Positions 2,997 to 35,464 of a stretch of DNA of 50,967 bases are shown here, piece after piece. Positions within the stretch are counted from its first letter, which is position 1; every line of letters begins with the position of its first letter. Below the pieces are notes generated by a model, which did no database searches, was not told the DNA's origin, and saw only the letters and a program-made list of their open reading frames with translations. The position numbers and the translations under genes were made by a program. This stretch comes from Planctomycetaceae bacterium (GTDB taxonomy: Bacteria > Planctomycetota > Planctomycetia > Planctomycetales > Planctomycetaceae). The DNA is taken from assembly GCA_036501235.1 (NCBI GenBank), contig DASYAR010000143.1, positions 1-50,967 on the forward strand, in the 5' to 3' direction.

Positions 2997-3026
2997 CGTG
3001 ACCTGCGTCAGACATTTGAACGAGAA

Positions 3027-4745: not shown

Positions 4746-4769
4746 AACCACTTCTACTATGATCGACGA

Positions 4770-4826: not shown

Positions 4827-4835
4827 TGTTGCCGG

Positions 4836-4866
4836 CATTCGCGTTCATTGGCGTCCATTCGCGGCT
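4836..4866 (+). repeat. ATCCGCG-family repeat, diverged copy (family R2)
   Basis: cattcgcgttcattggcgtccattcgcggct aligns with 1493..1521 and 18794..18824. All three have three ~10-nt ATYCGCG units ending in CGCGGCT. Confidence 0.6.
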
Positions 4867-4875
4867 CCCTCTTCT

Positions 4876-6234: not shown

Positions 6235-6295
6235 TTATTACGAGCTACGAGATTTGAGCCGCGTTTATTCGCGGCTGCCCGCTACTCTGAGGGGT

Positions 6296-12200: not shown

Positions 12201-15200
12201 GCTTCCGCGTCGATCATCCGCCCCCGGATGACCTGTTCGGGGTAAAGAACTATTTCCGCCTGCGGGATCTCGCCCTGGTTGGAGATGTTGAACCATTCCA
12301 CACCATAATCGCGATGCTGGGCAATCAGAGATATTTCCCTCCAGGCCGGGAAGTCACTTTCCAAAATCTCGGCGGCAAATCGTCCCTCGGCATCGGTCGT
12401 GGCCTTGGGGTTGAGTTTCCATTCATTCTGTAATTGCGGTTGTTTGTCGGTCATCACCGGCACAGACAGCGCGACGCCAGCAATCGGCTTACCCGCCGCA
12501 TCGACGACGCGACCGCGGACCGTTCGCGACGACTGAGTACTCAGTACTGAGTACTCAGTACCGAGTGAAGATTTCACATTCCCATTCCCCGTGGCCCGAA
12601 TATCCGCTTTCTCCGTATTCGCAGCAGGCGAATTTGTCTTCCCCCCGTTCTCAGTGGAAACCCTTTTCTTCCCCCCGTCCACGGGGGGATCGAGGGGGGG
12701 CTTCTCGTTAGTCGTCGGTTTCACCGATTCCGCAGGCTTCCCGGAATCGAGCTTGAGCACCAGGTCGCCCAGGTTCTTTGTCTGGCCCGGTTCAGCCGTG
12801 ACATCAGAAAACACCGGCCCCTGCCGCGACCCCTTCAGCCGCCTCTCGGTGAAAAATCCCGGTCGGAAATTCAAGTAGGCGGAGTACTTCAAGCCGGGGA
12901 CGATACCCTTCAGCTCGAAGCGGCCGTCGGAATCGGTCTTCAAATTGATCTGCAAGACGCCGTGCTCCAAGTCGGCTGCCGATGGCTGGCCCCTCAGAAA
13001 AACCGTGTACCGCGAGTCTGAGATACTGACTTGGGGGAACGGCGCGTTCCCATCGTCTGCGTCAAGCACGCGCCCGACCAGAGTCGCCGCTGGTTGCAGA
13101 GTGATCGCCAGGTCTTTCGGCGGCTCGCCCGAGAGGTCGCGATAGCCCACGAGGTTCCGCTCCTGATGGAAAACGATCAGCCGCCGCGTCTCGGACGGGT
13201 TGTACGCGGTGACGTTGAAGCTTTCTCGTGTGTTCCTTTGCCAGACAACTCCCCGCCGGGCGCCAAAGACCAGGTAATTGATCAACGGCTGACCATCGGG
13301 CGCGAACACACGCGCCTGAAACTCGCTGCCGGTGCTGCGCAGCGCGAGATTAACGGTCGACTCATTGTCTTCCGGCCGCGGATTGATCGGCGCCAGCAGA
13401 CTATGAGCGGATGCAATGCAATAAGTCGGCCAGGTCTCAAATACAATCGAATTTCCTCCGGTCGCTTGCCTCGGACAGTCGATTCCGTCGGCCCCGACAC
13501 CGTCGGGAAATTCCGTTCCCGCCCGCAGCGCGAGAATTCCCTGGCCCGGCAACACGGGTATTTCGAAGCGGCCGTCGGCATCCGGGTGAATTCCGTTCTG
13601 CGAATGACCCTCGTGCAGACTGTCGGACTCTGTCGCGTGCGGGTTCGTCTTATAGGCGAAGTATTGGAGATTGCCGCGCACCGGTTTTCCTGTCGTTTCG
13701 TCGATCGCCCGGCCGCGAACGAGCACGCCGGCCGTGAGCGAAATGTCTCGCACGACGGTGGGGGCCGCCGCGGTCGTCGTCAGGTGCACGCCCCCGGGCA
13801 GGTGGCGCGATCGTGCGGGGGGAGTGATCAGCAGGTCGTTGACACCCACCGGCAGTCCCTCCAGGCGATATTTCCCATCAGTGTCGGTGACGACTCCTTT
13901 CCATTGGCCGCTCGATTCCACGCCCACTCCGGCCAGCGGCTGGCCCGTTTTGAAATCGGTGACGCGCCCCGTGACGGGGATCGACGGGCCGCTGACGAGA
14001 GTGAATTCATGGGGGTGATAGGTAAACGCCAGCGACGCGTGGGGAACGGGGCTGTCCAGGCCCAATTTGACCGTTTCCCCGGCGCGCGTCCGGACTCGTT
14101 CCTCGGATGTTTCGATTCCCGGGCCGCTGATCAGGAGCTCGGCGATCCGCTCGCGGCCAATTCCGTGCAACGTGAACCGGCCGTCTTCACCCGTATGGAC
14201 CACAGGAATCAGCGGGGGACGCGATCCCGCGAACACATTGCCGTGCATAGTTGCTCTTCTGGCTGGCGCCGATCCCATACCGCCGCGGAAATTAAAGTTC
14301 ACCGTATGTCCGCGGGCAATCTGGCGCAAGTGCGGGGTCGTCGTCGACGTGTCGGCGTCCGGCTTCTTCGACGCGGCGTCCCAGGCATCGAGCGTGCCGT
14401 CTTTCCCTTCCCAGAATTCGAAGGCCTCGATCGTTGCGCCGGCGACGGGTTGGCCATCGGCGTTCAAGATCCTCCCCCGGATCGGGATGTCGTCACGGAC
14501 CAGCGTCAGGACGTTGGATTTCTTTCCCGGCGGGATCGCGAGCCGGTCACGTTGCCGATCGGGCAACTCGCTGGCAGGCCGCCCGCTCGTCTCGAAATGC
14601 ACCAGAGGGCGAAACGCAAAACCGTAACCCGCTTTGACGGCCACCAATCCGGCATCGAACCAGAAACCCTGTCCGCCGTCAGCCCCGTCTACGAAGTCGC
14701 CGTTCTTCGCCGAGAATTCAAACTTGCCGCGTTCGTCGGTAAGCAGCGCAGGAAGGGCATCGGGCGCCGACGGGTTCTTGTGGAAATAGCTGACCGAAAC
14801 CTTCGCCCTGGCGACCGGTTGGCCCTGCTCGTCGACGACCGAGCCGGCGAAGGTAAACGTGCCGTCCGACTTCGCGCTCGATTTGGGAATATCCGCCGCA
14901 GGAGACTGAGTACTGAGTACTGAGTTCTCAGCACTCAGTGGGGGCGGCGTCGCTGCCGCCATGTTTTGTTTATTCGGCTGCGGCAATTGCTGATTCGGCG
15001 GTGCAAAGACGACGTCACCCAGATCGACTTCCTGACCTGGTTTCTGCGGCTGCTGTTCCGCGGTGAGTTTCGCCGTCAGCAGTTTGCCGTCAACGGACAC
15101 TCTCAGCTCGATTGGTTCACCGGGGATGAGATTGTCGAATCGAAACCGGCCGTCGGCGCCGGTTTTCTGCTGAGGCTTTCCGGTATTCTCGAATTTCTGC

Positions 15201-18200
15201 AACTGGAACGTCGCTTGAGAGAACGTCTCGCAAGCGGTCTCAGCGATCGGTGCTCCCGATTTGTCGACGGCCCGACCGCGGATCGCAGCAGCTTTGTCCA
15301 ACATCATTCGAATGGGGGAAGGCTCATTGCCGGTCACAGTCAGCAAACCGGCCAGCCCGTGCAGACTGTGCCGGACGATGAGTTTGCGAGGAGACTCGGC
15401 AGCCAGCGCATAGAGTGTGGTGCGCGACTCGTCGAGGCGGGTCGGAAAAGAAAAGTCGTCGATGCCGACGATGACGGCGCCGGTCACAGGCTGACCGTCG
15501 CCGTCGACGATCTCGAGCTCAGCCGTTTTGCCCCGGTCGAGCGTGATTTCGATCGGCTCTGCCTGGGCGCCTTCCGCGAGATCGACGTATTGGGCGATAT
15601 TCGACAGGTCCAATGAGGAAAAGCCGCCTCCCGCCGCCGGGAAGGCCTTGCCAAAGGGGCGTTCGGTCAGTTTCAGTTTCGCACTATCTGCCTTGCTCAC
15701 AACCCCCATTCGGAACGGAGAAACCATGTGCCCGCCGATGCGGATCGTGGGATTGACCTGCACCATCACGGCGCCGGGGCCGGGGATCACCGGAACTCGG
15801 AATTCACCACCGCCGTTTGCGCGAACCTGGCGGGCGCCACGCAGCGCGTCTTTGTAGCGCGGCTGATTGGCGAATTCATTTCCGAGCATCGGCACAAACC
15901 GCACGAACGCCGGCACCCCGTTGCCCGTCAGCGGATCGATCACACGGCCGCTTAACAGAGTGCCTTCGCCGACTGAGCCCAGTTTCAATTCGACATCGAC
16001 CGTTTTCTGCGCATCGTCGGCGGTTGTCGAAATGGTGACCTCATGCCTCAACACCTCGGTTTGACGCTCTGGGCCGCCGAAGCTCATGCGGACTTCGCGG
16101 CCGCGCGGCACTCCGGTCAGCCGATACCGCCCCTCGGCGTCCGTTGTGGTAACCCCGACGACCGACAAATTCGCGCTGGCGCGAACGATCAGATCGGCCG
16201 CCGGCTTGCCATTCGCCGTGGCGCGGCCCTCGATCGTCAATCCGGGAATCCCCACATGAGTAAAGTCGGGACCGACGAGTCGGACGGGGGCCTGACGATT
16301 TCCCGCAGCGGGCGGATTGTAAGGAGCCGTGTCGAGGCCTTGGCGATTCACCACAACCACCCGCTCGCGGACAAAGCGATCATCGTTGATTTGGATCTGG
16401 CAGGCGCCGTCGGCGGCGATGCCGTGGATCACAAACCGGCCCTCGGCATCGCTGATTGGAAGGTACGACGTGGGCATAAATCGCAACGTCAGAAAGCGGT
16501 TCTCGACAGGCGGGCCGGGCGAACCCTTTTTCCGCTCTTCCAGATACTCATCGAGCAGATTGGGCTGCCGAGGCGAGAGACGCGCACCAATGAATACTTT
16601 GGCGCCGGCGACCGGCCGACCCTCGGCGTCGATCATGCGCCCGGGAATCGGCTGTTCGGGCTTCAGGACAATCTCCGCGGCCGGCACGTCGCCCCGTTCT
16701 GGAATGTCGAATAGATCGAGCGCATACCCCGGATGTTCGGCGACCAGAGGCATTCGCCGTCCCTCTTCCAGCTCCAAGGCAAATCGCCCGTCGGCATCGG
16801 TTTTGGTTTGGGCGAGAAGCGGCCCATCGGCCTCCTCGGCGGCAATAACTCGGTTTGGGCCGAATTTCAGCACCTGCAGTGAAACGTCCGCGAGCGGCTT
16901 GCCCGCCGCATCGACGACGCGGCCACGGACGGACCGCGACTTTCCAGCTTCCGCCGCCCCCACCCCGGGGCTTTGCGTGGACGGAGAGGGGGATTCAGGC
17001 TTTCCGCCATCCGGGGAGGAAGCCTCTTTCTTCTCCCCATTCTCGGCAGGAACATTTTCCTTACCGCCGTCCACGGGGGGATCGAGGGGGGGATTCGCAT
17101 CCGGGTTATCGACCATGGGGAGCAGAGAATCGGGGTTGTCCTGAGCAGACTCCTGGGTACTCAGTACTGAGTACTCAGGACTTGACTCCGCGGCCGTTTC
17201 GGTTGGGACATCGTTTTGGGCTTCTTCAGCGACAACCACAAGTGGTGCTTCCTCTTTGCCGGTCGACGGCCGCAGCGCCGCGGCGAGCGCGATGAGCGGG
17301 ACGATGACTGCCACCAGAACGAGCGCCGTGCCGCGGGTGAGTCGCTGCGACAGGGGCCTCCGGAAATCGAGGATCGAGTCGATGCGCGTTTCGACGCTGG
17401 AGCAGCGGGCCATCGACACGCCGCCGATCACCAGGCGGCCGCGATGGGCGCGGGCCGTCGCGGCGACTTCCAGAAGGTGCCGGGCGTAGCTGGCCCGGTC
17501 GCCTGTCGTCCCGATCGCCGCGTCGTCGCAGGCGGCCTCGGCCAGGCTCGCCAGCCGCCGGCGAAGCCACCACGCCAGGGGATGGAACCAGTACAGGCAG
17601 CGATTCAGCTCGGCCAGCAAAGCCAGAGCGCAATCACCTCGCTCGGCGTGCGTTCGTTCGTGAATCAGGACGACGTGCAGTTTTTCGACCGACCAGTTAA
17701 TCCAATCCGGCGGCAGCAGGATCCGCGGGTGAAAGACACCCAAGGTGAACGGAACGCGAATCGTCGGACACTCCAGAATCGGCACATCGCGCCGCGAGGG
17801 AGCGAACGTGTTCGCATTCGTCACCAGCGCCGGCAACCTGGCCGGGTCGATCAGCCGCGAGGCGCGTCGCAGTTTCTGCGCCATCCACAATCCGGCCAGC
17901 AGGCGCAACGTCAACAGGGCGGCACCCAGGATCCACACGCTCCAGAACACCAGCGGGATTCGCGCCATGAGGCTTTTCCAGACAGACGGCTCGACGGCCG
18001 CCGCGATCGCGCTCCTCTCGGCCGCTTCCGGCTCGACCGGTTTCGTCTCCGCGACGGCTGCCGGCTCGGCCGACGGATTCTCGGTGAGCGCGTCGTCGGA
18101 TGTGCCATACGATTGTGGCGGACCGCTGTGAAATTCACCCGGCCAGCGGCCCCGAGCGCCCGGCCAATCGGGTCGTCCGGCCAGGGCCCGGTCGTAACCG

Positions 18201-18595
18201 TTCAGCGGCGACTCACTTTCGAGCGGCGCCGGCTGCCCGTCAGAAACTGGCTCGGACGTGGTGCTGGTTGTTTCCGCTGCGGGCTGGTCGTCCGAATGGG
18301 ACTTGTCGGAGGTCTGGGACCTGTCAGTTCCAAGTGCCTGGCTGCCACCTGTGCGCTGCAACTCGGCGAACCATTCGGGATCAACCGAAAACGGCAACCG
18401 CAAGGTGGGAATGACTTGCGTCAGCACGGGCAAGAGAAGCATGCCGCACAGCACGCCCATCCACGCCCGATGCCGCAGGTTGCTGTCGCGGACCCGCAGC
18501 AGGGAGAGGCCTGCCGCCGCGACCAGCGCCACGAGCGCCGCTTTTACCGAGGCATCGACAAACACAATCAGCCACTGGATGGAAAGGTCTGACAT
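6296..18595 (-). CDS. Giant (4,099 aa) BlaR1/MecR1-type M56 metallopeptidase-domain membrane protein fused to ~3,650 aa of repeated carboxypeptidase-regulatory-like (Ig-like beta-sandwich) modules
   Basis: Single uninterrupted 12.3-kb ORF. N-terminal hydrophobic helices and the zinc motif H-E-R-T-H (aa 312-316, nt 17648..17662) sit in the context VVLIHERTHAERGDC...YWFHPLAWW, typical of M56. The rest is built from dozens of G-R-V/I-x-D-x-x-G-x-P ... D-x-x-G-R-F/Y units. A BlaI-type repressor gene lies upstream on the same strand. Confidence 0.85.
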   Translation of the reverse strand: MSDLSIQWLIVFVDASVKAALVALVAAAGLSLLRVRDSNLRHRAWMGVLCGMLLLPVLTQVIPTLRLPFSVDPEWFAELQRTGGSQALGTDRSQTSDKSHSDDQPAAETTSTTSEPVSDGQPAPLESESPLNGYDRALAGRPDWPGARGRWPGEFHSGPPQSYGTSDDALTENPSAEPAAVAETKPVEPEAAERSAIAAAVEPSVWKSLMARIPLVFWSVWILGAALLTLRLLAGLWMAQKLRRASRLIDPARLPALVTNANTFAPSRRDVPILECPTIRVPFTLGVFHPRILLPPDWINWSVEKLHVVLIHERTHAERGDCALALLAELNRCLYWFHPLAWWLRRRLASLAEAACDDAAIGTTGDRASYARHLLEVAATARAHRGRLVIGGVSMARCSSVETRIDSILDFRRPLSQRLTRGTALVLVAVIVPLIALAAALRPSTGKEEAPLVVVAEEAQNDVPTETAAESSPEYSVLSTQESAQDNPDSLLPMVDNPDANPPLDPPVDGGKENVPAENGEKKEASSPDGGKPESPSPSTQSPGVGAAEAGKSRSVRGRVVDAAGKPLADVSLQVLKFGPNRVIAAEEADGPLLAQTKTDADGRFALELEEGRRMPLVAEHPGYALDLFDIPERGDVPAAEIVLKPEQPIPGRMIDAEGRPVAGAKVFIGARLSPRQPNLLDEYLEERKKGSPGPPVENRFLTLRFMPTSYLPISDAEGRFVIHGIAADGACQIQINDDRFVRERVVVVNRQGLDTAPYNPPAAGNRQAPVRLVGPDFTHVGIPGLTIEGRATANGKPAADLIVRASANLSVVGVTTTDAEGRYRLTGVPRGREVRMSFGGPERQTEVLRHEVTISTTADDAQKTVDVELKLGSVGEGTLLSGRVIDPLTGNGVPAFVRFVPMLGNEFANQPRYKDALRGARQVRANGGGEFRVPVIPGPGAVMVQVNPTIRIGGHMVSPFRMGVVSKADSAKLKLTERPFGKAFPAAGGGFSSLDLSNIAQYVDLAEGAQAEPIEITLDRGKTAELEIVDGDGQPVTGAVIVGIDDFSFPTRLDESRTTLYALAAESPRKLIVRHSLHGLAGLLTVTGNEPSPIRMMLDKAAAIRGRAVDKSGAPIAETACETFSQATFQLQKFENTGKPQQKTGADGRFRFDNLIPGEPIELRVSVDGKLLTAKLTAEQQPQKPGQEVDLGDVVFAPPNQQLPQPNKQNMAAATPPPLSAENSVLSTQSPAADIPKSSAKSDGTFTFAGSVVDEQGQPVARAKVSVSYFHKNPSAPDALPALLTDERGKFEFSAKNGDFVDGADGGQGFWFDAGLVAVKAGYGFAFRPLVHFETSGRPASELPDRQRDRLAIPPGKKSNVLTLVRDDIPIRGRILNADGQPVAGATIEAFEFWEGKDGTLDAWDAASKKPDADTSTTTPHLRQIARGHTVNFNFRGGMGSAPARRATMHGNVFAGSRPPLIPVVHTGEDGRFTLHGIGRERIAELLISGPGIETSEERVRTRAGETVKLGLDSPVPHASLAFTYHPHEFTLVSGPSIPVTGRVTDFKTGQPLAGVGVESSGQWKGVVTDTDGKYRLEGLPVGVNDLLITPPARSRHLPGGVHLTTTAAAPTVVRDISLTAGVLVRGRAIDETTGKPVRGNLQYFAYKTNPHATESDSLHEGHSQNGIHPDADGRFEIPVLPGQGILALRAGTEFPDGVGADGIDCPRQATGGNSIVFETWPTYCIASAHSLLAPINPRPEDNESTVNLALRSTGSEFQARVFAPDGQPLINYLVFGARRGVVWQRNTRESFNVTAYNPSETRRLIVFHQERNLVGYRDLSGEPPKDLAITLQPAATLVGRVLDADDGNAPFPQVSISDSRYTVFLRGQPSAADLEHGVLQINLKTDSDGRFELKGIVPGLKYSAYLNFRPGFFTERRLKGSRQGPVFSDVTAEPGQTKNLGDLVLKLDSGKPAESVKPTTNEKPPLDPPVDGGKKRVSTENGGKTNSPAANTEKADIRATGNGNVKSSLGTEYSVLSTQSSRTVRGRVVDAAGKPIAGVALSVPVMTDKQPQLQNEWKLNPKATTDAEGRFAAEILESDFPAWREISLIAQHRDYGVEWFNISNQGEIPQAEIVLYPEQVIRGRMIDAEARPVAGAKIAIRSLLAPETGNSLDAILAERQKQTFGGRTGARHAAGGLPDSFGAVSDDEGRIVLHGVAAERLCAIEISAGDFATTTVLVANRQGLDAVPYNQPRRDVFGGRAPDLLVGPEFTHVGVPGLTIEGRVTAAGGKPVADLTVGASPMGTTFTRTATDADGRYRLSGLPRGRQLSVRFAMSGHGDLLPSMVRLSPNGDEGLKTVDIELKNGIVVSGRVVDPLTGGGVRGAITFLPLPGNEFVQKPGYEGSNSGGIIGYADDEGHFRFAAMPGRGVLAVEANSRIESGPIFRCGAISDEDVPQIKPQDSQFGGRYFATAIGQMGLMRYHLVKYVNFSEDGGPYSVDLKLDRGKSVDLEFVDDVGQPVTGLAVSGLADGQGFQARQVTEASTTIFALGSDRPRQVIALHPDRGLAGSVTLTGEEASPVRLTLGKSAAIWGRAVDESGDPIGSAEFGLQVLQEFQRFLNTGKPAPATDKDGRFRITNLVPGEPFHLILRLDGKPLNAKLTKEQQTLKPGQDLDLDDVVFVPQGRQLPQQNEAGKPATKPPLSTQSSRTIRGRVVDPDGKPFAGARIWVVGWYGGISTGVKNVPVAEATSRADGSFEIEFSRVKLELAAWGLSLSDSMTTIVAFGDNFGPVWKRLDELPSEEDVMLELARDDLPVTGRILDPEGRPVRNVKIAVSNLRAPKDGDLSGFLKAVAGGQIRPMAIYDWMTFLPDFDGIPLPAAITDDQGRFRLAGVGRERYAEFSITAPNVAYGEGSIVTRPGASTVMQEMDQRAPNAAKLARRLYGAEIEFVALPSRPVTGTVRDAETGKPMPGIRIFNWRFAGSPLFGSIVIDTFTDKDGRFQLSGMPLGEGNLIMIVPPTDQPYFSRQATVAVDAKLDPVPLEIGLHRGIWITGRVADKATGQPVSAVVHWTPYRTNEFAQKLTAEFGPSGMRTGWTNYRVDPDGTYRVLGLPGRALVAASVNSPHAQSYRLGTGREKLDPADRGGLIPGRMGPAGMLPQTVWRAQPGSMRMYHSLKEINVPESAESFTCDVELDPGESLRVSVVDREGQPLSGFSVRGNRRLPADEPTRTQGSSFDVPTMGPGDKRILLIHHVEKQLGKVATVEFQPDGPREMKITLEPCSTVTGRIVAPAVDPKTGGKLVLMARLDGLDGTRRQLGKCDLDKEGRFRFDGLLLGCEYLLLFEGIVERVATPFEQYRSGPFDVEPGETKDLGDVRLTTGNPGTADPGTRPPAAPTILQSPQRAADKGTETPRSDKAASPPEPRQARSDRPTPLPDGRGSAVAARGSAGPSPPSPAADKSKSTANSEGTITAIHGHIIGPDGKPAVKANVAIIGSRIQPERGGDLSSRSHVLAEVTTHDGGRFEIKLADVSSKAYSRAHIIARSEGSGLAWRRLDPDAHDVDVALELPAEQVIRARFIDIEGQPAGGVRVSIGSVISRSAAEARSEAAESVGYQKLEKPPQAWPPLVTADPQGAFEIRGIPADHGVYLDVEGTDRIAPQWISINTGFSEERSTNDGTYRSLVRNFKPGEEAVLPLAPAQLFEGVVRFEDTGEPAPHARLTIWASQQQFGGSMISLAGKADARGRYRINPLPGVRFGITAYPPDGVPYLIREIRDIRHRDGALVKQVDVSLPRGVLVRGRVVESGTTNPIAGVAVQYVPETRNNPNVADDIVTGWQGIQLSGMDGAFEIAVLPGPGTLLANGPGKQFVSHEFGSRQLERGLPGGERNYAHAMQRINPKPNSDPLDLTLTLHRGVTISGRITNSADEPVEKALLISRLNIHSSELTWRGFPIEALGGRFELSGLGESREYPVHFLDPKNRLGATVVFKAGDQSPTVVLEPCGEAVATFADSLGKPIPDVQPDFEFVVAPGPHRFGSSAMRLVALAADAEYVVNIDRTNYREGPKSDAEGRITFPALIPGGRYRIVTHNDGKVVVRKEFVAESGKTLDLGKIIVAPQKDE
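12532..12559. repeat. 28-nt perfect palindrome of AGTACT-containing heptads inside the giant CDS
   Basis: actgagtactcagtactgagtactcagt is its own reverse complement. It encodes ...EYSVLSTQ... at the B1/A2 module junction. Confidence 0.85.
14905..14940. repeat. Heptad (TACTGAG) tandem repeat inside the giant CDS
   Basis: actgagtactgagtactgagttctcagcactcagtg encodes ...LSAENSVLSTQS... at the A1/B1 junction. Confidence 0.8.
17152..17179. repeat. Near-perfect 28-nt palindrome of the same heptads inside the giant CDS
   Basis: cctgggtactcagtactgagtactcagg has an 18-nt perfect core at 17157..17174. It encodes ...PEYSVLSTQES... in the linker between the M56 region and module A1. Confidence 0.8.
17273..18595 (-). 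other. M56 (BlaR1-like) transmembrane protease region of the giant protein (aa 1-~441)
   Basis: Predicted helices at about aa 8-33, 45-63, 211-237 and 421-441, with HERTH at aa 312-316. An acidic, Ser/Pro/Glu-rich low-complexity insert of ~130 aa (aa ~75-200) lies between helices 2 and 3. Boundaries estimated by eye. Confidence 0.7.
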
Positions 18596-25801: not shown

Positions 25802-26866
25802 CTACTTTTTCCATAGCGTCTGCGAAACGATGAGGGCCGTGATCCCAGGAATGATCGTGAACAGCGCAAACGTCGTTGGGTTCATTCCGAATACACCCGG
25901 CGTAATTACAAACCAGTCCAGGAGGTACGACACCACGAAACTGAAGTTGATGCAGACGATTCCGGTCATGAAATCATTCTTCTGCTCTTCAGGAGTCTTC
26001 GGCCCCCGCCGTTGCTTCTTTTCCTTTTTGGCGGATTCGGCCCTCTTCGCCTTGGCGGCCGCCTTGTCTTTCCCCTTTTTGTCGGCGCCCTTGTCGCCCG
26101 CTGCGGCCTCCGCCGCAGCTTCAGCGGCCTCCTTCGCGGCTTCGCGAGCTTTTTGCGCGTCGGCCGAGTAATGTTTGGCGATCGACTGATGAATCGCCTG
26201 CGGCGCCGCCAGCACGCTGCGCACGGGCTTACTGAACCGCAGCCGCAACTCGTCTTCCAATTCGTGGCTGATGTGATTGACGCAGGCGATCAACATCACG
26301 TTCTCGTCGATGAACAGCGGCAAGATCGAATGCTGCTTGGCCGTCGCTTTGGGGACCTGGTCGAGCACGTCGTCTTCGGGAAAGGTTTCGGTGAGGTCGA
26401 CGTACGGCAGACCCAATTCCTGGGCCAAGGCCTGGGTGGCAATTTCTGCCGAGACCATATTCAACTGGACGAACGCGTCGCGGAGGTCGAGACCGGCGCG
26501 CTCGGCGTGGTCGCGGGCTTCCTGGGCCTGGTCGGAGCTGACGTGCTTCTGATCAATCAGAATCACATCCATCGTGCGGGGGCCGGTCGCGTCTTCTTCG
26601 AACTCGCGCCCCTGGCTGACGTCGTACTCGCGCTTGCGCTCGAGATCGGTCAGGCACAACATCACCTTGGCCAGCTCGTTCAGCAGGGCCTGCGATTCTT
26701 CGAGATACTGGCCGGTGGCGTATTTTCGGACGTGCCCGTTCAGTTTCTTGTAGTTCGCGCGGATCTTGTCGATCGAATCTTCGAACTGTTTCAGACGCAG
26801 CAATTGGTAGTGGTCGGGGGGCCGGGGGCCGTCGGGGATCCCCAGCCATTCCTTATAGACGTCCAA
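25802..26866 (-). CDS. Membrane-anchored J-like domain / T2SSE_N (GspE N-terminal-like) domain protein
   Basis: - aa 1-82 are J-domain-like (DHYQLLRL...IRANYKKL...LTDLERKREYD), but the HPD position reads H-V-R.
- aa ~95-225 resemble the GspE/MshE N-terminal domain (...LAQELGLPYVDL...ILPLFIDENVMLIAC...).
- aa ~235-295 are a Lys/Ala/Glu-rich linker.
- aa ~300-350 form two hydrophobic helices.
- The start lies 21 nt downstream of the Hsp70 stop. Confidence 0.6.
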   Translation of the reverse strand: MDVYKEWLGIPDGPRPPDHYQLLRLKQFEDSIDKIRANYKKLNGHVRKYATGQYLEESQALLNELAKVMLCLTDLERKREYDVSQGREFEEDATGPRTMDVILIDQKHVSSDQAQEARDHAERAGLDLRDAFVQLNMVSAEIATQALAQELGLPYVDLTETFPEDDVLDQVPKATAKQHSILPLFIDENVMLIACVNHISHELEDELRLRFSKPVRSVLAAPQAIHQSIAKHYSADAQKAREAAKEAAEAAAEAAAGDKGADKKGKDKAAAKAKRAESAKKEKKQRRGPKTPEEQKNDFMTGIVCINFSFVVSYLLDWFVITPGVFGMNPTTFALFTIIPGITALIVSQTLWKK

Positions 26867-26887
26867 GCGGCCTCTCTCCTCGCTATG

Positions 26888-28465
26888 CTATTCCACCTGA
26901 TAGTCGCGAGCCAATTGCTCGAAGGCTTCCAGCCCCGTGTCGCTGACGCCGCCGTCGCGGACGATCTCGGCCGACGCCTCGCGATTCCCCGTCAATTCCC
27001 TGGCGTCCGCCCGAATCCGGCCGTCGGCGTCGTAGCTGTATGTCAGCTCGACCGGCGATCCCTTGGGCAAATTGCCCGGCAGATTCGTGATATGAAAATC
27101 GCCGATGATGGTACAGGCCGCGACGTCGGCGACTTCTCCTTGCAGCAGCCGCACGCGGATCCGTTGCTGGTTCGGCACGTTCGTCTGGAACCGCTGGCTG
27201 ATCTTATGGGGAATCGGCGTGTTCCGCGGAATCATGATGTGGTTCGATTTCTTGATCCGATCCACAGTGTCGGTGATCTCGACTCCCAGCGAGTGCGAAT
27301 TGACGTCGGTCGCCGTCACGTTGCGGAGCCGCTTGATCACGGCTTGCGCCATGCGGCTGTCGCCTCCGGATTCCCGGGCTTCGAGAATGGCCGCATGGAT
27401 CGCGGCGCCCTGCGCCACGGCCTCGTCCGGATCGAGTTCGCGCGAAGGCGCGCGGCGGCTGACGGACTTCAGCATGTCGAACACGGCAGGCATGTGCGTC
27501 GAACCGCCGACCAGCACGACTTCGTCGAGCCCGTCGACTTCGACTCCCGACTGCTGGAGCACGAGCTCAGTCGTATCTCGCGTTCGCTGCAGCAGGTCAC
27601 CCGTCATCCGTTCGAAGTCGCCGCGCGTGACCGCCACCGTCAACGTCTTGCCTTCGAAATACAGGTTGACGGGGGTCTGCGCCTTCGACGACAGTTTTCG
27701 CTTGGCGTCCTCGCATTCCTGAGTGAATTGCAGGCGCGTTTCCCCATGGGCCAGCGGGTCGCTGCCGAATTTGCGGCGGAACTGCTCGGCCACGTGCTCG
27801 ACGATGCGGTTCGTCCAGTCGATGCCCCCCAGCATTACGTCGCCGTCGGTCGCCAGCACGCGGAAGTGCGTGGGCGTGTAGCGGACGACCGTCACGTCGA
27901 AGGTACCACCCCCCAGGTCGTAAACCATGATGGTCTTTTCGATCTTGCCGCCGTCGGACCGCCCGAGCTCTCCCTTCATCCAGGCGTAGGCCAGCGTCGC
28001 CGCCGTCGGTTCGTTGACGATGTCGATCACGTTCAGCCCGGCGATGCGCCCGGAGTCCTGAGTCGCCTTGCGGCGCAAGTCGTTGAAGTAATACGGTACC
28101 GTAACGACTGCATTGACGATCGGTCCCACCGTCGCTTCAGCGTCCTGCTTGAGCTTTTTCAAAATGAGGGCCGAAATGAATTCCGGCGTCAGCTTCTTGC
28201 CCTGATAGACCTTACTCCAGGTCTTGCTCCCCATCTGCCGTTTGATCGCCTCGACGATATTGTCGGGCGACTCGACCGAGATGCGTTCGGGGGACGGCCC
28301 CACGACGACGTGGCCCGACTCTCCCAGCAGCACGACCGACGGCGTGGTCGTTTTTCCGTCGGCGTTCTTCAGCGAGATCGGACTCCCGTTGGCGTCGAGT
28401 TGTGCCAGGGACGAATAGGTGGTTCCCAGGTCGATGCCGACCGTGTTCCCTTCCAATAATTTCAT
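26888..28465 (-). CDS. Atypical Hsp70 family protein lacking the C-terminal helical lid
   Basis: Actin-fold ATPase motifs GIDLGTTYS, DLGGGTFDV and VLVGGSTHMP, followed by a beta-sandwich substrate-binding-like region. The protein ends at ~525 aa. Preferred start is ATG 28465 (MKLLEGNTVGIDLGTT); the track ORF extends to 28627. Confidence 0.85.
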   Translation of the reverse strand: MKLLEGNTVGIDLGTTYSSLAQLDANGSPISLKNADGKTTTPSVVLLGESGHVVVGPSPERISVESPDNIVEAIKRQMGSKTWSKVYQGKKLTPEFISALILKKLKQDAEATVGPIVNAVVTVPYYFNDLRRKATQDSGRIAGLNVIDIVNEPTAATLAYAWMKGELGRSDGGKIEKTIMVYDLGGGTFDVTVVRYTPTHFRVLATDGDVMLGGIDWTNRIVEHVAEQFRRKFGSDPLAHGETRLQFTQECEDAKRKLSSKAQTPVNLYFEGKTLTVAVTRGDFERMTGDLLQRTRDTTELVLQQSGVEVDGLDEVVLVGGSTHMPAVFDMLKSVSRRAPSRELDPDEAVAQGAAIHAAILEARESGGDSRMAQAVIKRLRNVTATDVNSHSLGVEITDTVDRIKKSNHIMIPRNTPIPHKISQRFQTNVPNQQRIRVRLLQGEVADVAACTIIGDFHITNLPGNLPKGSPVELTYSYDADGRIRADARELTGNREASAEIVRDGGVSDTGLEAFEQLARDYQVE

Positions 28466-28696
28466 TGTACCGCCTTGAAGCTCGTCATGAGTTGATGAAA
28501 TGAACCGCCGACCCGCACCACGAACAGGCTTGTCGAGACGACCCGCCTGCGGAAACGATTGCAATTCACGTCGCTGCGATACGCTTCGATCCAGCGCCAA
28601 AGACCCAGCCAACGATTGCTGCGGCATCCCGCCGCATTCAGAGATTCTTCATTCTGACGGTGGTCCAGCCCAGAATCAAGTGACGCGTGCCGCGCA

Positions 28697-29134
28697 TCAC
28701 GATCCCTTCACATTCACCAAATCGTCAGGGGCCGGCGGCGATCCGGCCGTCGTTCTTCGCGGCGGCGCCAGCAGAAACGTCGCCACGACGATGAGGCCGA
28801 ATGCCGCATAAATCAGAGTGAATACCCAGGGGGGCGCATCGAAAAACAGCAATTCGTGCACCCAATGCCCGATAAAGTCGCCGGTGTAGGCTGCGTGACC
28901 GCTATGGCTGCGGAGCCAGGTTTCGAGCGTCGTCAAAGGACAGACGATTCCCAACAGCGCTTCGACGACGACGACCGAGATCGCCGTCAGGTGCAGCCAA
29001 CGGAACCACGGATTCCGAATCCAGCCCCAGCGGCGCAGGATGCCGACCAGCACCCCCAGTTGCCCGACGACAACGAACGCCACATATCCCGCATGCAGCA
29101 CGACGACGAGGTCGGCGACCAGTTTGTACGGCAT
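28697..29134 (-). CDS. DUF2784 family small membrane protein
   Basis: Hydrophobic ~145-aa protein with CPLTTLETWLR, recalled as the DUF2784 core. Preferred start is MPYKLVADL at 29134. Confidence 0.55.
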   Translation of the reverse strand: MPYKLVADLVVVLHAGYVAFVVVGQLGVLVGILRRWGWIRNPWFRWLHLTAISVVVVEALLGIVCPLTTLETWLRSHSGHAAYTGDFIGHWVHELLFFDAPPWVFTLIYAAFGLIVVATFLLAPPRRTTAGSPPAPDDLVNVKGS

Positions 29135-29372
29135 GGGCGAATTCTCCCGTCCAGCAAGATTGATGATATGCATCCAGATGCGATGCGCCGAGACGTTCGT
29201 TTATTCCTCCGCCAGCGCTGACTTAAAGCGATTTGGGTCGATGGAAACCAATCCCCTGACACGTCCCTCCTCCAATTCGCATCGACAGGCTGGGCTTTGG
29301 CCGGTACGATCCCGCCTGATTTCGAGATCGCCTGACTGTCAAGGGGGCTGGTGGGCAGGGGCCGGAGCGGGC

Positions 29373-30114: not shown

Positions 30115-30501
30115 CTATTTGAATTGTTCCAAATGAACGATGTTACTCGCCATTTCGTCCGCCGAAAGGTGATTGATCAGTCGCAGTATTCGTTGCCGCA
30201 GCAGACTGTATTCACGACTGCCGAGCTGCCTGGAAACAATGATCCCAGAATGCTTCCGGCTCGCGGCTTGCCACCGGTCGGGCAGCGGTGCGAAATCGCG
30301 GATGTTGAATGTGACAATGGCCCGCTTTGCAGCCGCGGCAAAGGCGAGTTGCTCTTCGTCAGAAGCCGTGTCATTTCCTGATTCTTCGGTGGTCAGGACA
30401 TCAAAACCGCAACCACGCAAATCAACGGCCAAGCGGGCCATCACATGTCTGTCGAAGTACAGTTTAACGAAGAGCGATTCAACTTCGCGGGAATCGGGCA
30501 T
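30115..30501 (-). CDS. DUF5615 (PIN-like) putative toxin
   Basis: 128-aa ORF. LYFDRHV...LAVDLRGCGFDVLT...SDEEQLAFAAAAKRAIVTFNIRDF matches the recalled DUF5615/Mut7-C-like pattern. Overlaps the upstream DUF433 gene by 23 nt. Confidence 0.65.
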   Translation of the reverse strand: MPDSREVESLFVKLYFDRHVMARLAVDLRGCGFDVLTTEESGNDTASDEEQLAFAAAAKRAIVTFNIRDFAPLPDRWQAASRKHSGIIVSRQLGSREYSLLRQRILRLINHLSADEMASNIVHLEQFK

Positions 30502-30751
30502 GGGCCAGCTCTTCTTGGGCGATCAGCGTCACGATTTCCTCACGGTGGTCGAAGAAATAGCTGAGGGCATGAAAAACCTGGGCCTCACTAAGACCGAGCG
30601 CCCCTGCAATATCGAGAATCGTTTCGCCATGCTGATGCAGTGTGACGACGTGGCGCACAGTCACACGGAGTCCCTCGATCACCGGTTCGCCTCCGCAGAC
30701 GCCTTCCAGGCGAACGATGTGCGGGTGTTCGATTTTCACCGCATCAGACAT
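30479..30751 (-). CDS. DUF433 putative antitoxin
   Basis: 90-aa ORF. GGEPVIEGLRVTVRHVVTLHQHGETILDIAGALGLSEAQVFHALSYF matches the DUF433 pattern, which is usually paired with DUF5615. Confidence 0.7.
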   Translation of the reverse strand: MSDAVKIEHPHIVRLEGVCGGEPVIEGLRVTVRHVVTLHQHGETILDIAGALGLSEAQVFHALSYFFDHREEIVTLIAQEELAHARFPRS

Positions 30752-31669: not shown

Positions 31670-33154
31670 TCAGCTCGAAGCCAGTTCGCGAGACTGGCTC
31701 ACCTCGGACAGCTGAAGAAACACCCGGGCGATTTTCTGTGGCACCGTTTGATCGCCCGTGAACTGCAAGTTTCCTTGGGCGAGCGCCTGGTCGGCGGTCG
31801 TCTGGCCCGCGGCCAGAGACGCATAGGTGTCGACGTCGCATTCCAGCAGGCCGGAGCAGCGGGAGTTGATTCCCATATCGGCGGCGACCACTTCGCCATC
31901 GCTCACGAGAATCGTCCAGTCTCCGCCGCCATGACCCGTCACGCGCAGCCCGATGAAATTGCCTCCTTCCGGAGTTGATTCCGTCGATGCCGCCTCCACG
32001 AGGGGCTCGAGCGCCGCGGCCACGTCGAACGGGGGTTCGACGGCCTTCGCGCGCGGCGACGTGAATTTGACGCGGATTGCATAGTCAGCCATCCGCAGCA
32101 GCAACTTGCGGTCGATGTGCGGACAGGGAAGATGCGGCGCCGCCCGCCTCGTATTCGTCGAATCAAACGTCGGATCGTCTTTCCAGTATGAGTTGTAGAC
32201 GCTGATCAGCTCGCAGAAGAGCTGCTCATACTCCGTGAGCCCCGACATCGGCATCCCTGCGCCCTGCAGCTTGACCCCGTAGAAACCGACCGACTCCTCG
32301 AAAATATCGGCCAGCAACCGGGAGGGGACAGGATGCATCGGCGTCAGGTGATAAGTCTGGCCGTGATGTTCGGGGTGCGTCATGACGTGCGTCATCACCG
32401 CCGACACCCAGTCGACGGGGACCAGATTCTTAGTTTCACGGCCGGAGACCCCAAAGTGGCCGTCGACGCCGGAGTGGCCGGTGGCGTCGGGGCTGAACTG
32501 CTGGCCCAAGGTATGGACGGCCTGCAACAGGGCGTAAAAGCCATGGTAAGTCGTGGTATAACCGGTCGTCGAATCACCGATGATAATCGCCGGTCGATGC
32601 ACGGTGACCGAGTCGAGGCAATCGGCCGAACGGACCATTTTTTCAGCCTGCAGCTTACTCTGCTCGTAATCGTTCGACGTTTTCTGACCGACGTCGACGT
32701 CGGTTTCGAAAATCCGTCCAGAGCGCAGTCCGCCCACGTAGGCGGTCGACACGTGATGAAACTTGCGGATGCGGGCATTGCGGCACAATTCGAGGACGTG
32801 CCTGGTTCCGGCCAGATTCGAGCGCCACGGTTCGCTGTTGGGACCGGTGCTCAGAAACGTGAGGCTCGCGGCGTTGTGCAGCATGGTGTCGCAATTCTCG
32901 GCGACCCAACGTGTGCTGCGCGCATCCAGCCCGAGATCGGGCTCGGTAATGTCACCTTCGAGGACGACAGGGCGCGGGAGCGAGCGCCCCAGCATCTTGT
33001 CCCAATAGCACATGACATTTTCGACCCGATGCTGCGCCGTGGCGCGCCGCGACGGGCGCACCAGCACGGCAATCGGGATACCAGCCTCCGTGAGATCCTT
33101 GATCAGGTACCGTCCTAAAAGCCCTGTGGCACCCGTCAAAAATACGTAATTCAT
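31670..33154 (-). CDS. Thioester/acyl-CoA reductase-type SDR (NAD_binding_4-like) with C-terminal SCP2 sterol-carrier-like domain
   Basis: N-terminal FLTGATGLLGRYL (TGxxGxxG) and the catalytic Y-x3-K in YEQSKLQAEK. The C-terminal ~110 aa (GGDWTILV...ALAQGNLQFTGD) resemble SCP2. Confidence 0.7.
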   Translation of the reverse strand: MNYVFLTGATGLLGRYLIKDLTEAGIPIAVLVRPSRRATAQHRVENVMCYWDKMLGRSLPRPVVLEGDITEPDLGLDARSTRWVAENCDTMLHNAASLTFLSTGPNSEPWRSNLAGTRHVLELCRNARIRKFHHVSTAYVGGLRSGRIFETDVDVGQKTSNDYEQSKLQAEKMVRSADCLDSVTVHRPAIIIGDSTTGYTTTYHGFYALLQAVHTLGQQFSPDATGHSGVDGHFGVSGRETKNLVPVDWVSAVMTHVMTHPEHHGQTYHLTPMHPVPSRLLADIFEESVGFYGVKLQGAGMPMSGLTEYEQLFCELISVYNSYWKDDPTFDSTNTRRAAPHLPCPHIDRKLLLRMADYAIRVKFTSPRAKAVEPPFDVAAALEPLVEAASTESTPEGGNFIGLRVTGHGGGDWTILVSDGEVVAADMGINSRCSGLLECDVDTYASLAAGQTTADQALAQGNLQFTGDQTVPQKIARVFLQLSEVSQSRELASS

Positions 33155-33274: not shown

Positions 33275-35464
33275 TCACGCGACGCGTTCCGCAAGTTGCG
33301 AAACCGGCGTGCGCAACTTCTTCGCCCGGCCGACGAAAACCGGCGTCGCGACTTGGGTTGCGTCCGCTTTCCGACCGCGCCGCAGCGCCAGCAGGGCCGG
33401 CAGCAGCAACAGGTCCCCTGCCAGGGTTGCCATCAATAGCGACGCCATCATCACGCCGAACCGCACGGTGGGGGCGAAGCTGCTGAGCGTCATTGCCAGC
33501 ATCCCGATGCTCGACACGACGATCGATTCGAAAATCGGCCCGCCGGTCGTGTGCAGGGCGATTCGAACGGCATGACCGCTCGACTTCCCCTGGTCCCACT
33601 GTTCCTGATACCGGACGAGGAAATGAAACGTGCCGTCGATCGAAATCCCCAGCGCGATGCTGCCGGTCATCATCATGCCGATGTCGACCGGGAAATTGAT
33701 CCAGCCGAGAATGCCGAACACGATTCCCAGCGGAACGAGGTTCGGCACCATGGCCAGCATCATCGTCCGCACCGACTTGAGGGCGATCGCCATCACGATG
33801 CCGATGACCACGAATGCCGATGCAAAGCTCTTCCAGAACCCATCGAAGATTTCCTGCTGGGCCTGTTCGAGCAAAGGGGCGATCCCTGTGAAGTGAATCG
33901 GCTCGCCCGCCGTGAGTTGTTCGAAGTCGGTGTAGATTTGATGGAGCGACACGCCCGGCTCGCGCTGGATGCGTGCCGAAATCCGCCAGAGCTGCTGACC
34001 ATCCACGATCAGCTCGTTGTTTCCCTCCTGCGACTGCGCTTTCGAAAGCAGGTTGACCAGTGTCAGCGGGTTCTCGGGGAGCGGATCGGGAAAGAAAGAC
34101 GCGGCCGACAGCGTATGTCTCACGGCGGGGTGTCCGGCCAATCGATGTTCGAGATCGCGGACTTTCTGCAGCCGCGTGACGAAGGGGACGTCGGCGTCGC
34201 CGAAATCGACGACCGCTTCGATCGAATCGAGAGCGGTAAGATCGGATTGAATCCGCAGCACGTCGGCCATCACCTTGCCCTTCTGCGGCAGGAAATCGAG
34301 CGGATCGATCTTCGTGTCGAGACGCCACAACCCGAACATGCCGACCACGGCCAATACGACGGACGCGGCCACGACACTGCGGCTGTACCGCATCAACCAG
34401 TTGCCGAGCCGGGCGAACCCAAGCCCCGATTGCTCGGCTTCGTCGGGCATGCAACTCGCAGGCAAGACCATGAGAATCGCCGGCGTCACGAACAAGCCGG
34501 CAAAAATCGCCACGACGGCGCCCAAGGTCGAAGCGTATCCGAAGTGTGTCACCGGCACGATGTCGGTGACGCTCACCGAGAACAGGCCGATCGTCGTGGT
34601 CAGCATCGAAACCAGGCACGGCTTCCAGCACAATTTGAGGGCCGCCCCCAGAGGGTCGGTTTCACCGAGCGACGCTTTATAATAGTGTATGACGTGGATC
34701 GACGCTTCGAGAGTAAAGACCATCACCATGACGGCCAGTGCGCCGAGGATGAAGTTCATTTCGCCGCCGGCCAGTTTGAAGATCGTCAGCGTCAGGTTGA
34801 TCGCCCACAGCGTGAGGGCCAGCACCGAGAGCGAGAGTTTCCAGTCTTTGATCCAGTAGTAGAGCAGTCCCAGGCAGATGACGAGGGTGACCACGAAGAA
34901 CTTCTGGTTCTCCTCCGTTCCGCCGAGGCGGTCGAGCTCGGCGACGATCACCGGGCTGCCCGACAGAAACGACCGGTCGCCGGCCAGGTGGCAGTATTGC
35001 AATTCGCGGTTGATATCGGCGACGGTTCCCGCTCGGTCCTTGAGCCCCACGCCCGACAGCAGCACGATGAGCCCGGCCAGTTTCTCGTCATGCGACAGGG
35101 CCAGGCCCTTCACTCGATCCTGCGCGGCGGCCGGGGAAACTCCTGTTTCCGACATGACCGATCGCAGCCGTTCCGGAGACATGCACCGGCGCACGCCGGG
35201 CAACCTTTCGATGCGCCCGCAGACGGCCTCGATCAACTCGTCGTCGGCGAGACGTCGCTCGATTCCGATCACGATCGTCTCTTCGACCCCGAAATCGCGC
35301 TTGAATTGTTCGTAGGTCGAACGGACGGCCGATTCGCGGGGTAGCCAGGTTTCGATGTCGTTGTTGCAGGGAATCGACTGTGCTTCGTACGTCAGGTAGG
35401 GAAAGCTGAGGACAGCCACCCAGAGAATCAGACTGCTGAACCGCTTGTAGAATCGTGAGAGCAT
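33275..35464 (-). CDS. MMPL/RND-superfamily transporter
   Basis: 729-aa ORF with two blocks of ~6 hydrophobic helices, each preceded by a soluble loop. The overall pattern matches MMPL/HpnN-like lipid exporters. Confidence 0.75.
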   Translation of the reverse strand: MLSRFYKRFSSLILWVAVLSFPYLTYEAQSIPCNNDIETWLPRESAVRSTYEQFKRDFGVEETIVIGIERRLADDELIEAVCGRIERLPGVRRCMSPERLRSVMSETGVSPAAAQDRVKGLALSHDEKLAGLIVLLSGVGLKDRAGTVADINRELQYCHLAGDRSFLSGSPVIVAELDRLGGTEENQKFFVVTLVICLGLLYYWIKDWKLSLSVLALTLWAINLTLTIFKLAGGEMNFILGALAVMVMVFTLEASIHVIHYYKASLGETDPLGAALKLCWKPCLVSMLTTTIGLFSVSVTDIVPVTHFGYASTLGAVVAIFAGLFVTPAILMVLPASCMPDEAEQSGLGFARLGNWLMRYSRSVVAASVVLAVVGMFGLWRLDTKIDPLDFLPQKGKVMADVLRIQSDLTALDSIEAVVDFGDADVPFVTRLQKVRDLEHRLAGHPAVRHTLSAASFFPDPLPENPLTLVNLLSKAQSQEGNNELIVDGQQLWRISARIQREPGVSLHQIYTDFEQLTAGEPIHFTGIAPLLEQAQQEIFDGFWKSFASAFVVIGIVMAIALKSVRTMMLAMVPNLVPLGIVFGILGWINFPVDIGMMMTGSIALGISIDGTFHFLVRYQEQWDQGKSSGHAVRIALHTTGGPIFESIVVSSIGMLAMTLSSFAPTVRFGVMMASLLMATLAGDLLLLPALLALRRGRKADATQVATPVFVGRAKKLRTPVSQLAERVA

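Follow-up and report, generated by a model that had tools for sequence, protein, structure and literature searches.

The closest characterised system to the gene pair examined here is the Escherichia coli Hsp70 HscC with its membrane-anchored J proteins DjlB and DjlC. HscC responds to DjlC only, and not to DnaJ, CbpA or HscB (PMC8215388), and DnaK with DjlA is another case in which a membrane J protein acts as a tether (PMC8215388). The pair lies in a 50,967-nucleotide stretch of DNA from Planctomycetaceae bacterium (GenBank assembly GCA_036501235.1, contig DASYAR010000143.1; the whole stretch is called the window below) and consists of an Hsp70 gene and, downstream of it, the gene of a membrane protein with an N-terminal J-like domain (the partner). 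An initial annotation, made from the sequence alone, had put the two minus-strand genes 21 nt apart, which is exact, and knew of no characterised membrane-tethered Hsp70, which overlooks both E. coli cases (PMC8215388). Systems in which a membrane J protein serves a specialised Hsp70 are known, and the pair is a new one of this kind. What is unusual is that the contact between the His-Pro-Asp (HPD) motif of the J domain and Arg167 of Hsp70 is changed on both sides together.

Comparison with described systems

Like the window pair, HscC-DjlB/DjlC combines a non-DnaK Hsp70 with a J protein encoded beside it, and DjlB and DjlC resemble the partner in having an N-terminal J domain, a middle region and a C-terminal transmembrane (TM) anchor. 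The window Hsp70 also shares the HscC-type indels, namely, the deletion of DnaK positions 76-101, a deletion in the D211 loop, a six-residue deletion in the nucleotide-binding domain (NBD) and an insertion in loop L1,2 of the beta substrate-binding domain (SBD-beta); two of these also occur in non-proteobacterial DnaKs and hence are not decisive (PMC8215388). Unlike the window Hsp70, however, HscC (556 aa) keeps R167, E206, E217, D326 and Q378, its linker (V-I-L-T) is largely hydrophobic, and its lid is shortened. DjlB and DjlC carry the near-canonical HPE (PMC10410713) where the partner has R-K-Y, and they have a single TM helix and no MshEN domain, whereas the partner has an MshEN domain and a TM hairpin. 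In pairwise comparison, the window Hsp70 is 32% identical to HscC (202 bits) versus 36% to DnaK (301 bits). We rejected membership in HscC, as pairwise similarity does not favour it over DnaK despite the shared indels.

The DnaK-DnaJ complex (5NRO) contains the same two folds, and by analogy the window pair probably shares its general logic of a J domain targeting an Hsp70. The differences lie in the contacting parts: where DnaJ has HPD, the partner has R-K-Y followed by an invariant A-T/S-G turn in a four-residue loop between helices II and III, and the DnaK residues that receive HPD (R167, Q378 and L391/392) and K26 (E217) are all replaced in the window Hsp70, from which DnaK's lid helices B-E and C-terminal tail are absent as well. 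Membrane J or J-like proteins also position Hsp70 in the Pam18/Pam16-mtHsp70 (TIM23) and Sec63-BiP systems, much as the partner may do. Pam16 is a J-like protein without HPD and a known regulator. Unlike the window pair, these systems are eukaryotic and organellar and act on the trans side of the translocon, and the Hsp70s in them are of the canonical type, having both R167 and a lid. The middle domain of the partner, finally, shares the bipartite fold, made up of a helical bundle and an alpha/beta subdomain, of the N-terminal domains of MshE, PilB, PilF and GspE/XpsE, but the partner has no secretion ATPase attached and carries a signature of its own.

A divergent J domain without HPD

The initial annotation had recognised J-domain helices in the partner, and this reading is borne out by profiles and structure models, though not by single-sequence searches. 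No Pfam match to DnaJ was obtained with the full-length partner protein. The isolated N-terminal domain aligns with PF00226 from end to end (1-63 of 63) in 16/16 members, always below threshold; that of the window scores 15.7 bits against a gathering threshold of 27.8. Searched against the PDB, a family profile of the J-like region finds J domains first, but weakly (E = 0.012), and a profile built from 60 superfamily sequences places about 50 J domains at the top of the list (DnaJ, E = 1.9e-6; CbpA, E = 2.1e-6). The homology is significant only at the profile level. Of the three domains for which hidden Markov model searches had been proposed, HSP70 (PF00012) and T2SSE_N (PF05157) were recovered directly and DnaJ was not.

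With the same 60-sequence alignment, AlphaFold2 (AF2) modelled the J-like domain at a predicted local distance difference test score (pLDDT) of 89.2 and a predicted template modelling score (pTM) of 0.77. The model has the four-helix J fold, with helices at residues 19-22, 32-47, 52-73 and 75-84 preceded by an extra N-terminal helix (residues 3-8). All of the top 33 Foldseek matches to it are J domains (target-normalised template modelling score [target TM] up to 0.84; root mean square deviation, 1.7 Å), and the Tim14-Tim16 structure 2guz is a weak fold match at rank 37. In an earlier AF2 model based on 29 close homologs, the J region had a pLDDT of 45-62, and Foldseek gave no J matches. The N-terminal 90 residues are the best conserved part of the partner family. 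Profile and model comparison together indicate a true, if divergent, J domain from which His-Pro-Asp is missing.

According to the initial annotation, the HPD loop reads His-Val-Arg. The loss of HPD holds in any register, but the register given was off by two residues: in the profile alignment, R47-K48-Y49 faces H33-P34-D35 of DnaJ, and HVR (residues 45-47) forms the last turn of helix II rather than the loop, which comprises the four residues K48-T51. Among the 81 family members used for all partner residue and motif counts, R47, Y49 and G52 are invariant and A50 is present in 80. Neither HPD nor HPE was found in these 81 proteins or in the sampled superfamily domains. The equivalents of DnaJ Y25, K26 and F47 are conserved in the partner as Y39, K40 and L62. 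The domain, whose gene is linked to an Hsp70 gene, may stimulate the ATPase of that Hsp70.

An Hsp70 with an intact catalytic site and an altered J-receiving surface

As the initial annotation had it, the other gene encodes an Hsp70 of about 525 aa with the ATPase motifs and SBD-beta that stops before the lid of DnaK. The match to PF00012 (E = 1.5e-118) ends at profile position 517 of 599, and the C-terminal residue aligns with N522 of E. coli DnaK, just past lid helix A, the one lid helix present. Since almost all of the 120 database proteins closest to it have lengths of 524-529 aa, the missing lid is a family trait.

For residue counts, 67 family sequences were aligned with E. coli DnaK and HscC by using MAFFT. 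Window residues K75, E152, D183, T188 and D190, which correspond to the catalytic residues K70, E171, D194, T199 and D201 of DnaK, are conserved in 67/67. Position 167 (DnaK numbering, here and below), which is Arg in DnaK, HscC and Mtb DnaK, is Asp in every member, and K155Q, D326Q and Q378H (window residue His357) are likewise found in 67/67. E206 is replaced by Arg or Lys in 65 and E217 by Arg or Lys in 64 of the 67 (Arg202 in the window protein). In SBD-beta, Ile483 has become Arg throughout the family, two residues past the clamp residue D481. The window protein also departs from the hydrophobic VLLLD interdomain linker of Hsp70s, and in the family the linker has S/T/K/Q at 390, T/A at 391 and S/T/A at 392. 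D393 and P419 are unchanged in 67/67. SBD-beta, a sandwich with a hydrophobic pocket, aligns through DnaK 394-505, with F426 kept and V436/I438 read as I/V in the alignment.

These positions are among those through which DnaK is controlled by its J protein. D35 of the DnaJ HPD motif hydrogen-bonds R167 and Q378, H33 forms a bond with the L391 backbone, and P34 touches P419 (PMC8215388), and the J-domain residues K26, Y25, H33, D35 and F47 signal via R167, E217, L391 and L392 (PMC13012618). In the ATP state, D481 is clamped to R167/I168 and K414 to D326, and linker-driven activation of the DnaK ATPase needs the hydrophobic linker residues and D393 (PMC8215388). R167 switches between D393/D481 and D35; with R167D, J stimulation is uncoupled, and R167H is a suppressor of the DnaJ mutation D35N (PMC7289447). 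With the catalytic residues kept and the docking and switch residues replaced, the alignments indicate that the hydrolysis machinery of the window Hsp70 is intact and that its J-receiving surface is systematically re-coded. Neither these changes on the Hsp70 side nor the large superfamily to which the J-like domain belongs (see below) had figured in the initial annotation.

Conservation of the pairing

When one genome was scanned for each GTDB species, relatives of the partner turned up in 380 species genomes, and we compared the neighbourhoods of the best 80 of these loci (Gimesia, Planctomicrobium, Schlesneria, Planctomyces and others). In 77 of the 79 testable loci, the gene immediately upstream, on the same strand, is that of the 525-aa Hsp70, with gaps of 10-576 nt; two loci have no adjacent Hsp70, and one has too little upstream DNA to judge. 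The Hsp70 also adjoins the partner in L001, L004 and L005. Both exceptions belong with L002 and L003 to one sub-clade, the flanks of which are not conserved. Across loci, identity ranges from 63 to 91% for the Hsp70 and from 46 to 74% for the partner. The pairing, on which the earlier proposal of a dedicated chaperone pair depended, is thus conserved across species and is not due to chance.

Clustering of open reading frames (ORFs) revealed no third recurrent gene within 7 kb on either side in the 80 loci; a cluster from 18 loci proved to be a spurious antisense shadow ORF. Members of this Hsp70 family also occur in cultured Symmachiella (among them Symmachiella dynata), Maioricimonas and Rubinisphaera, where they are annotated only as "Hsp70 family protein." At one locus (L080, 5326-7566), the Hsp70 is split in two overlapping frames, which suggests a frameshift or an assembly error.

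A J-like superfamily and three further pairs

An exhaustive search with the J-like profile returned 7,998 clusters at 50% identity, 4,155 of them at E <= 1e-10. The proteins are 88-1,776 aa long and carry one to five copies of the domain, with the consensus DPYxxWLGIPpxxQPPnHYRLLGL..FE.D..VI..AA.rqmAHVRxyqtGxh..SQ.lLNEla.A..CLLd..kK..YD..L, in which there is no HPD. The superfamily is largely unannotated, its database entries being "hypothetical protein" without a Pfam domain. Because the largest published J-protein census dropped sequences without HPD (PMC10410713), it would have been missed there. Named entries come nearly all from Pirellulales, Thermoguttaceae, Planctomycetia and Ca. Anammoximicrobium, and one partial record is labelled Ca. 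Nealsonbacteria; the superfamily is apparently Planctomycetota-wide.

Fusion partners include MshEN, WD40, Laminin_G_3, FGE-sulfatase, NPCBM, LRR and 3-keto-disaccharide hydrolase domains. Most often, one or two J-like domains precede a linker, a single TM helix and a C-terminal region of large size, and a TM segment is predicted after the last J-like domain in 94 of 114 representatives of at least 250 aa. The J-like domains would thus mostly sit at cytoplasmic N termini of single-pass membrane proteins, with the large C-terminal domains outside the cytoplasm.

A general linkage between the superfamily and Hsp70 genes was considered and rejected, as an Hsp70 stands alongside in only 3 of 80 metagenome loci; tight linkage is therefore specific to the MshEN branch. 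The three pairs (L152, 5968-8815; L156, 2695-5811; L136, 3558-8886) are nevertheless informative. Their Hsp70s are distinct paralogs, 41-50% identical to the window Hsp70, and all have Asp167. Both of those that reach position 483 have Arg there and no longer have the canonical LLL linker, and the two full-length paralogs are lid-truncated. The accompanying J-like proteins have a TM helix followed by a 3-keto-disaccharide hydrolase domain (L152) or by LRR and NPCBM domains (L136); in L156, no C-terminal Pfam domain was found after the TM helix. The A-T-G turn after the HPD equivalent is common to all four independent J-like/Hsp70 pairs, while position 47 of the J-like domain is Arg in the window and L136 and Gln in L152 and L156.

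Two further cases show the domain in series. A 7.5-kb metagenome contig (L119) carries a tandem array of J-like membrane proteins, with four consecutive same-strand ORFs at 227-7517 (632, 507, 873 and >266 aa) that each contain a J-like domain. The 604-aa protein P0241 has five tandem HPD-less J-like domains (residues 6-89, 115-201, 254-337, 363-450 and 471-552) and no predicted TM segment and is among the few superfamily members above the Pfam DnaJ threshold.

MshEN domain, linker and membrane anchor of the partner

The domain that had been likened to the N-terminal domain of GspE/MshE is indeed of this type. It matches PF05157 (E = 2e-15, residues 151-237), and its AF2 model (pLDDT, 82-90) shows the complete bipartite fold. 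Foldseek matches, including 7lkm, 5htl and 8pdk (E down to 8.5e-8; target TM, 0.73-0.79, with 0.79 for 5htl), comprise the N-terminal domain of Xanthomonas citri PilB in complex with PilZ, which is the best, that of Vibrio cholerae MshE, the GSPII domain of Thermus thermophilus PilF and the N-terminal domain of XpsE. The family signature in this domain is G125-L-x-x-R129-D130-A-x-V133-Q134. The T2SSE ATPase domain (PF00437) was not found in the partner, in which the N-domain is followed by the linker and the TM hairpin. The domain is most likely a non-nucleotide-binding use of the MshEN fold that is not linked to an ATPase and serves as a protein-binding adaptor.

The charged Lys/Ala/Glu linker and the two C-terminal TM helices of the initial annotation are also present. 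Linker residues 259-286 have a pLDDT of <50, as expected of a disordered segment, and the linker varies in length and sequence among homologs. Basic residues flank both ends of the TM hairpin, and Asp317 within it is conserved in 68/81. With basic residues at both ends, the hairpin would be N-in/C-in and the remainder of the protein cytoplasmic.

How the pair may work

The view of the pair as a dedicated chaperone unit, one of those offered at the outset, stands as the best reading, and on balance we believe that the two genes form an operon for a dedicated, insulated, membrane-tethered Hsp70 and its own J-type co-chaperone. The partner would be held in the cytoplasmic membrane by its C-terminal hairpin with the rest facing the cytoplasm, and its J-like domain would dock on the adjacent Hsp70 and bring it to the membrane. 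This Hsp70 appears re-coded at the J-receiving surface and switch (R167D, Q378H, E217R/K, the polar linker, D326Q and I483R), with the residues for ATP hydrolysis untouched. A re-coded J domain recruiting a re-coded Hsp70 would be insulated from DnaK/DnaJ: DnaJ-type proteins could not drive the window Hsp70, nor the J-like domain DnaK. The MshEN domain would most likely act as the protein-binding adaptor that selects a client or regulator, and clients that are bulky or close to the membrane would have their exposed segments bound by the lid-less SBD-beta, with on and off rates that are fast.

Several observations weigh against this reading. Canonical docking would place K40 (DnaJ K26) opposite Arg202 (E217), a like-charge pair, and with Gln at J position 47 in L152 and L156, a salt bridge between R47 and D167 is not general. 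R167D and linker mutations uncouple allostery in DnaK (PMC7289447, PMC8215388), so by analogy the window Hsp70 may be J-unstimulated altogether. In one sub-clade (L002, L017 and L022), moreover, no Hsp70 adjoins the partner gene. The idea of a mirrored salt bridge as a general rule, either between Arg47 of the J-like domain and Asp167 of the Hsp70 or between positions 40 and 217, was dropped, since two of the four pairs have Gln47 and K40 would face Arg202. The consistent reversal lies within the Hsp70 itself, from R167...D481 to D167...R483, and is compatible with a rebuilt latch, though also with a constitutively uncoupled Hsp70.

The dedicated-pair reading can be extended to the phylum, although this is a tentative step that we consider possible rather than probable. 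Planctomycetota would have a second Hsp70/J network orthogonal to DnaK/DnaJ, composed of the HPD-less superfamily (~8,000 clusters, with the WLGIP element and (R/Q)-x-x-A-T-G) and of lid-less Hsp70s with a reversed latch, in which the protein with the MshEN domain and hairpin is the core co-chaperone, encoded in the operon.

Alternatively, the partner could be a tether or regulator that does not stimulate, as Pam16 is, its J-like domain binding the Hsp70 or some other J protein without triggering ATP hydrolysis, and the Hsp70 a constitutively uncoupled ATPase with an SBD-beta, the activity of which is set only by its concentration at the membrane. HPD is absent from the J-like domain, and HPD-less J-like proteins such as Pam16 are known as regulators. 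D326Q, besides, removes the clamp partner of K414. The mutants DnaK R167D and Ssq1 R207D show a disengaged SBD-beta and ineffective J stimulation (PMC7289447), and the loss of hydrophobic linker residues ends linker-driven activation (PMC8215388). On the other hand, the region equivalent to HPD is the most conserved part of the partner, which would be unexpected in a passive tether, and what is seen in the Hsp70 is not decay but invariant substitution (D, H, Q and R in 67/67). Arg483 beside the position of D481 suggests a latch that was rebuilt, not lost, and the diverged paralogs carry the same Asp167/Arg483 state. We regard the nonstimulating tether as unlikely, if still a serious candidate.

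A different use of the partner would be as a second-messenger switch, in which the MshEN domain binds cyclic di-GMP (c-di-GMP) or a related nucleotide and so governs whether the Hsp70 is recruited to the membrane or active there. As high-affinity receptors, MshEN domains are widespread (PMC5013675), the complete fold of the partner matches c-di-GMP-bound MshE-N and PilF GSPII-B, and there is a weak NCBIfam match to an MshE-related c-di-GMP motif (E = 0.0019; 17.9 bits versus a cut-off of 38). The binding motif consists of two tandem 24-residue sequences, RLGxx(L/V/I)(L/V/I)xxG(L/V/I)(L/V/I)xxxxLxxxLxxQ (Wang et al., PMC5013675), and neither in its strict nor in a relaxed form does it occur in any of the 81 members (0/81), whereas the Myxococcus xanthus PilB control matches. 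The window protein has other residues in place of the key Arg and Gly of motif one and at the Gly positions in both motifs (T/M/D, K; D-L-R, N). The best structural match, X. citri PilB-N bound to PilZ, shows that the fold also binds proteins. A c-di-GMP receptor was accordingly rejected as a candidate, given the absence of the motif in 81 members and an NCBIfam match far under the cut-off, and the broader switch is improbable.

The similarity to the N-domains of PilB, GspE and XpsE would also suit an accessory of type II secretion or type IV pili, as the initial annotation had suggested, with the MshEN domain mimicking the N terminus of GspE/PilB and delivering the Hsp70 to the machine or to GspL/PilM/PilZ-like partners. 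In L002 and L003, and only there, the partner gene is beside T2SSE/T2SSF genes and an extracytoplasmic function (ECF) sigma factor gene. These neighbours are not conserved in L017 and L022 of the same Hsp70-less sub-clade, however, secretion and pilus genes do not recur around the pair in the 80 species loci, and the pair is flanked in the window by DUF2784, a GH5 cellulase, an S9 peptidase and AroC, all of which makes this link very improbable.

A merely historical adjacency without functional coupling, or a mobile conflict or anti-phage module of the kind also entertained at first, is the least credible reading: Hsp70-like and J-like proteins are found in some defence contexts, and a toxin-antitoxin-like DUF5615/DUF433 pair lies ~1.5 kb away, but neither protein has a PADLOC match at E <= 0.1, both are highly conserved and keep their adjacency and orientation amid variable flanks, and the GC content around the pair is unremarkable. 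A patchy distribution at strain level, an association with mobile elements or a phage-resistance phenotype, any of which this reading would call for, is not seen.

Implications for the HPD-Arg167 contact

HPD and its contact with Arg167 of Hsp70 are treated as an invariant core, and censuses of J proteins discard sequences that lack HPD (PMC10410713). In this gene pair, which is strongly conserved, both sides of the contact are replaced invariantly, and Asp167 recurs in other Hsp70 paralogs beside the same kind of HPD-less J-like domain. If functional, the pair would be a natural case of a re-coded Hsp70/J interface that insulates a specialised chaperone from the housekeeping one. It would also be a template for engineering orthogonal chaperone pairs and a way into a large family of J-like proteins, membrane-tethered and unannotated, in Planctomycetota, whose envelope and membrane biology is unusual. 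An orthogonal network, if true, would be a phylum-wide natural exception to the near-universal requirement for HPD, with a compensating change in Hsp70.

Gene calls and surroundings

Coordinates of the two genes and their parts are given in Table 1. The Hsp70 ORF is open over 26888..28627 (-), and its start was placed at the ATG at 28465 from homologs, since tblastn matches from 66 species loci cover the full length and begin at residue 1 of this reading; AAGG precedes this ATG. The partner starts with TTG, with a Shine-Dalgarno-like GAGGAG 9-14 nt before it in the intergenic spacer. The two genes share one reading frame.

Table 1. Features of the Hsp70/partner locus (positions in the window)
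Feature	Position	Strand	Basis
Hsp70 gene (525 aa: NBD, polar linker, SBD-beta, lid helix A only)	26888..28465	-	PF00012
NBD, residues 1-382, catalytic residues intact	27320..28465	-	alignment to DnaK
Asp148 codon (DnaK Arg167 position)	28022..28024	-	Asp in 67/67 Hsp70s
Interdomain linker V383-T-A-T-D387, replacing DnaK V389-L-L-L-D393	27305..27319	-	alignment
Arg483 codon (DnaK Ile483), SBD-beta	27017..27019	-	Arg in 67/67 members
21-nt intergenic spacer with putative ribosome-binding site of partner gene	26867..26887	-	CATAGCGAGGAGAGAGGCCGC
Partner gene (354 aa: J-like, MshEN, charged linker, TM hairpin)	25802..26866	-	TTG start; ORF call
HPD-less J domain, residues 1-88, with extra N-terminal helix/WLGIP element	26603..26866	-	profile, AF2 and Foldseek
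HPD-equivalent R47-K48-Y49-A50-T51-G52	26711..26728	-	profile alignment
MshEN/GSPII-fold domain, residues 98-245, without c-di-GMP motif	26132..26575	-	PF05157, AF2 and Foldseek
Lys/Ala/Glu-rich linker, helical then disordered, residues 246-291	25994..26131	-	pLDDT, homolog alignment
C-terminal TM hairpin, helices 292-321 and 330-350	25817..25993	-	AF2 helices and hydropathy scan

Immediately upstream of the Hsp70 gene is that of a DUF2784 membrane protein (28697-29173, minus strand), from which it is separated by a terminator-like hairpin after the DUF2784 gene (28700-28680). DUF2784 is also directly upstream in L001 (5438-5839), a relative with a 65% identical partner protein, but this adjacency is not conserved across the 80 species loci. 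The putative toxin-antitoxin-like pair mentioned above, DUF433 (90 aa) and DUF5615 (128 aa), overlaps at 30115-30751 (-), past the operon. Antisense to both genes runs an 815-aa ORF (26012-28459, plus strand), a shadow ORF typical of GC-rich DNA.

Farther away, a 4,099-aa ORF (6296-18595, minus strand) has a BlaR1-type M56 peptidase domain near its N terminus (residues 185-406) and, after it, numerous CarboxypepD_reg, transthyretin-like and Ig-like repeats, and its product resembles a membrane sensor or surface protein of very large size. On the other side, a gene for an NAD_binding_4 thioester-reductase-like protein with a C-terminal SCP2 domain (31670-33154, minus strand) adjoins that of an MMPL-family transporter (33275-35464, minus strand); the two could be a lipid synthesis/export pair.

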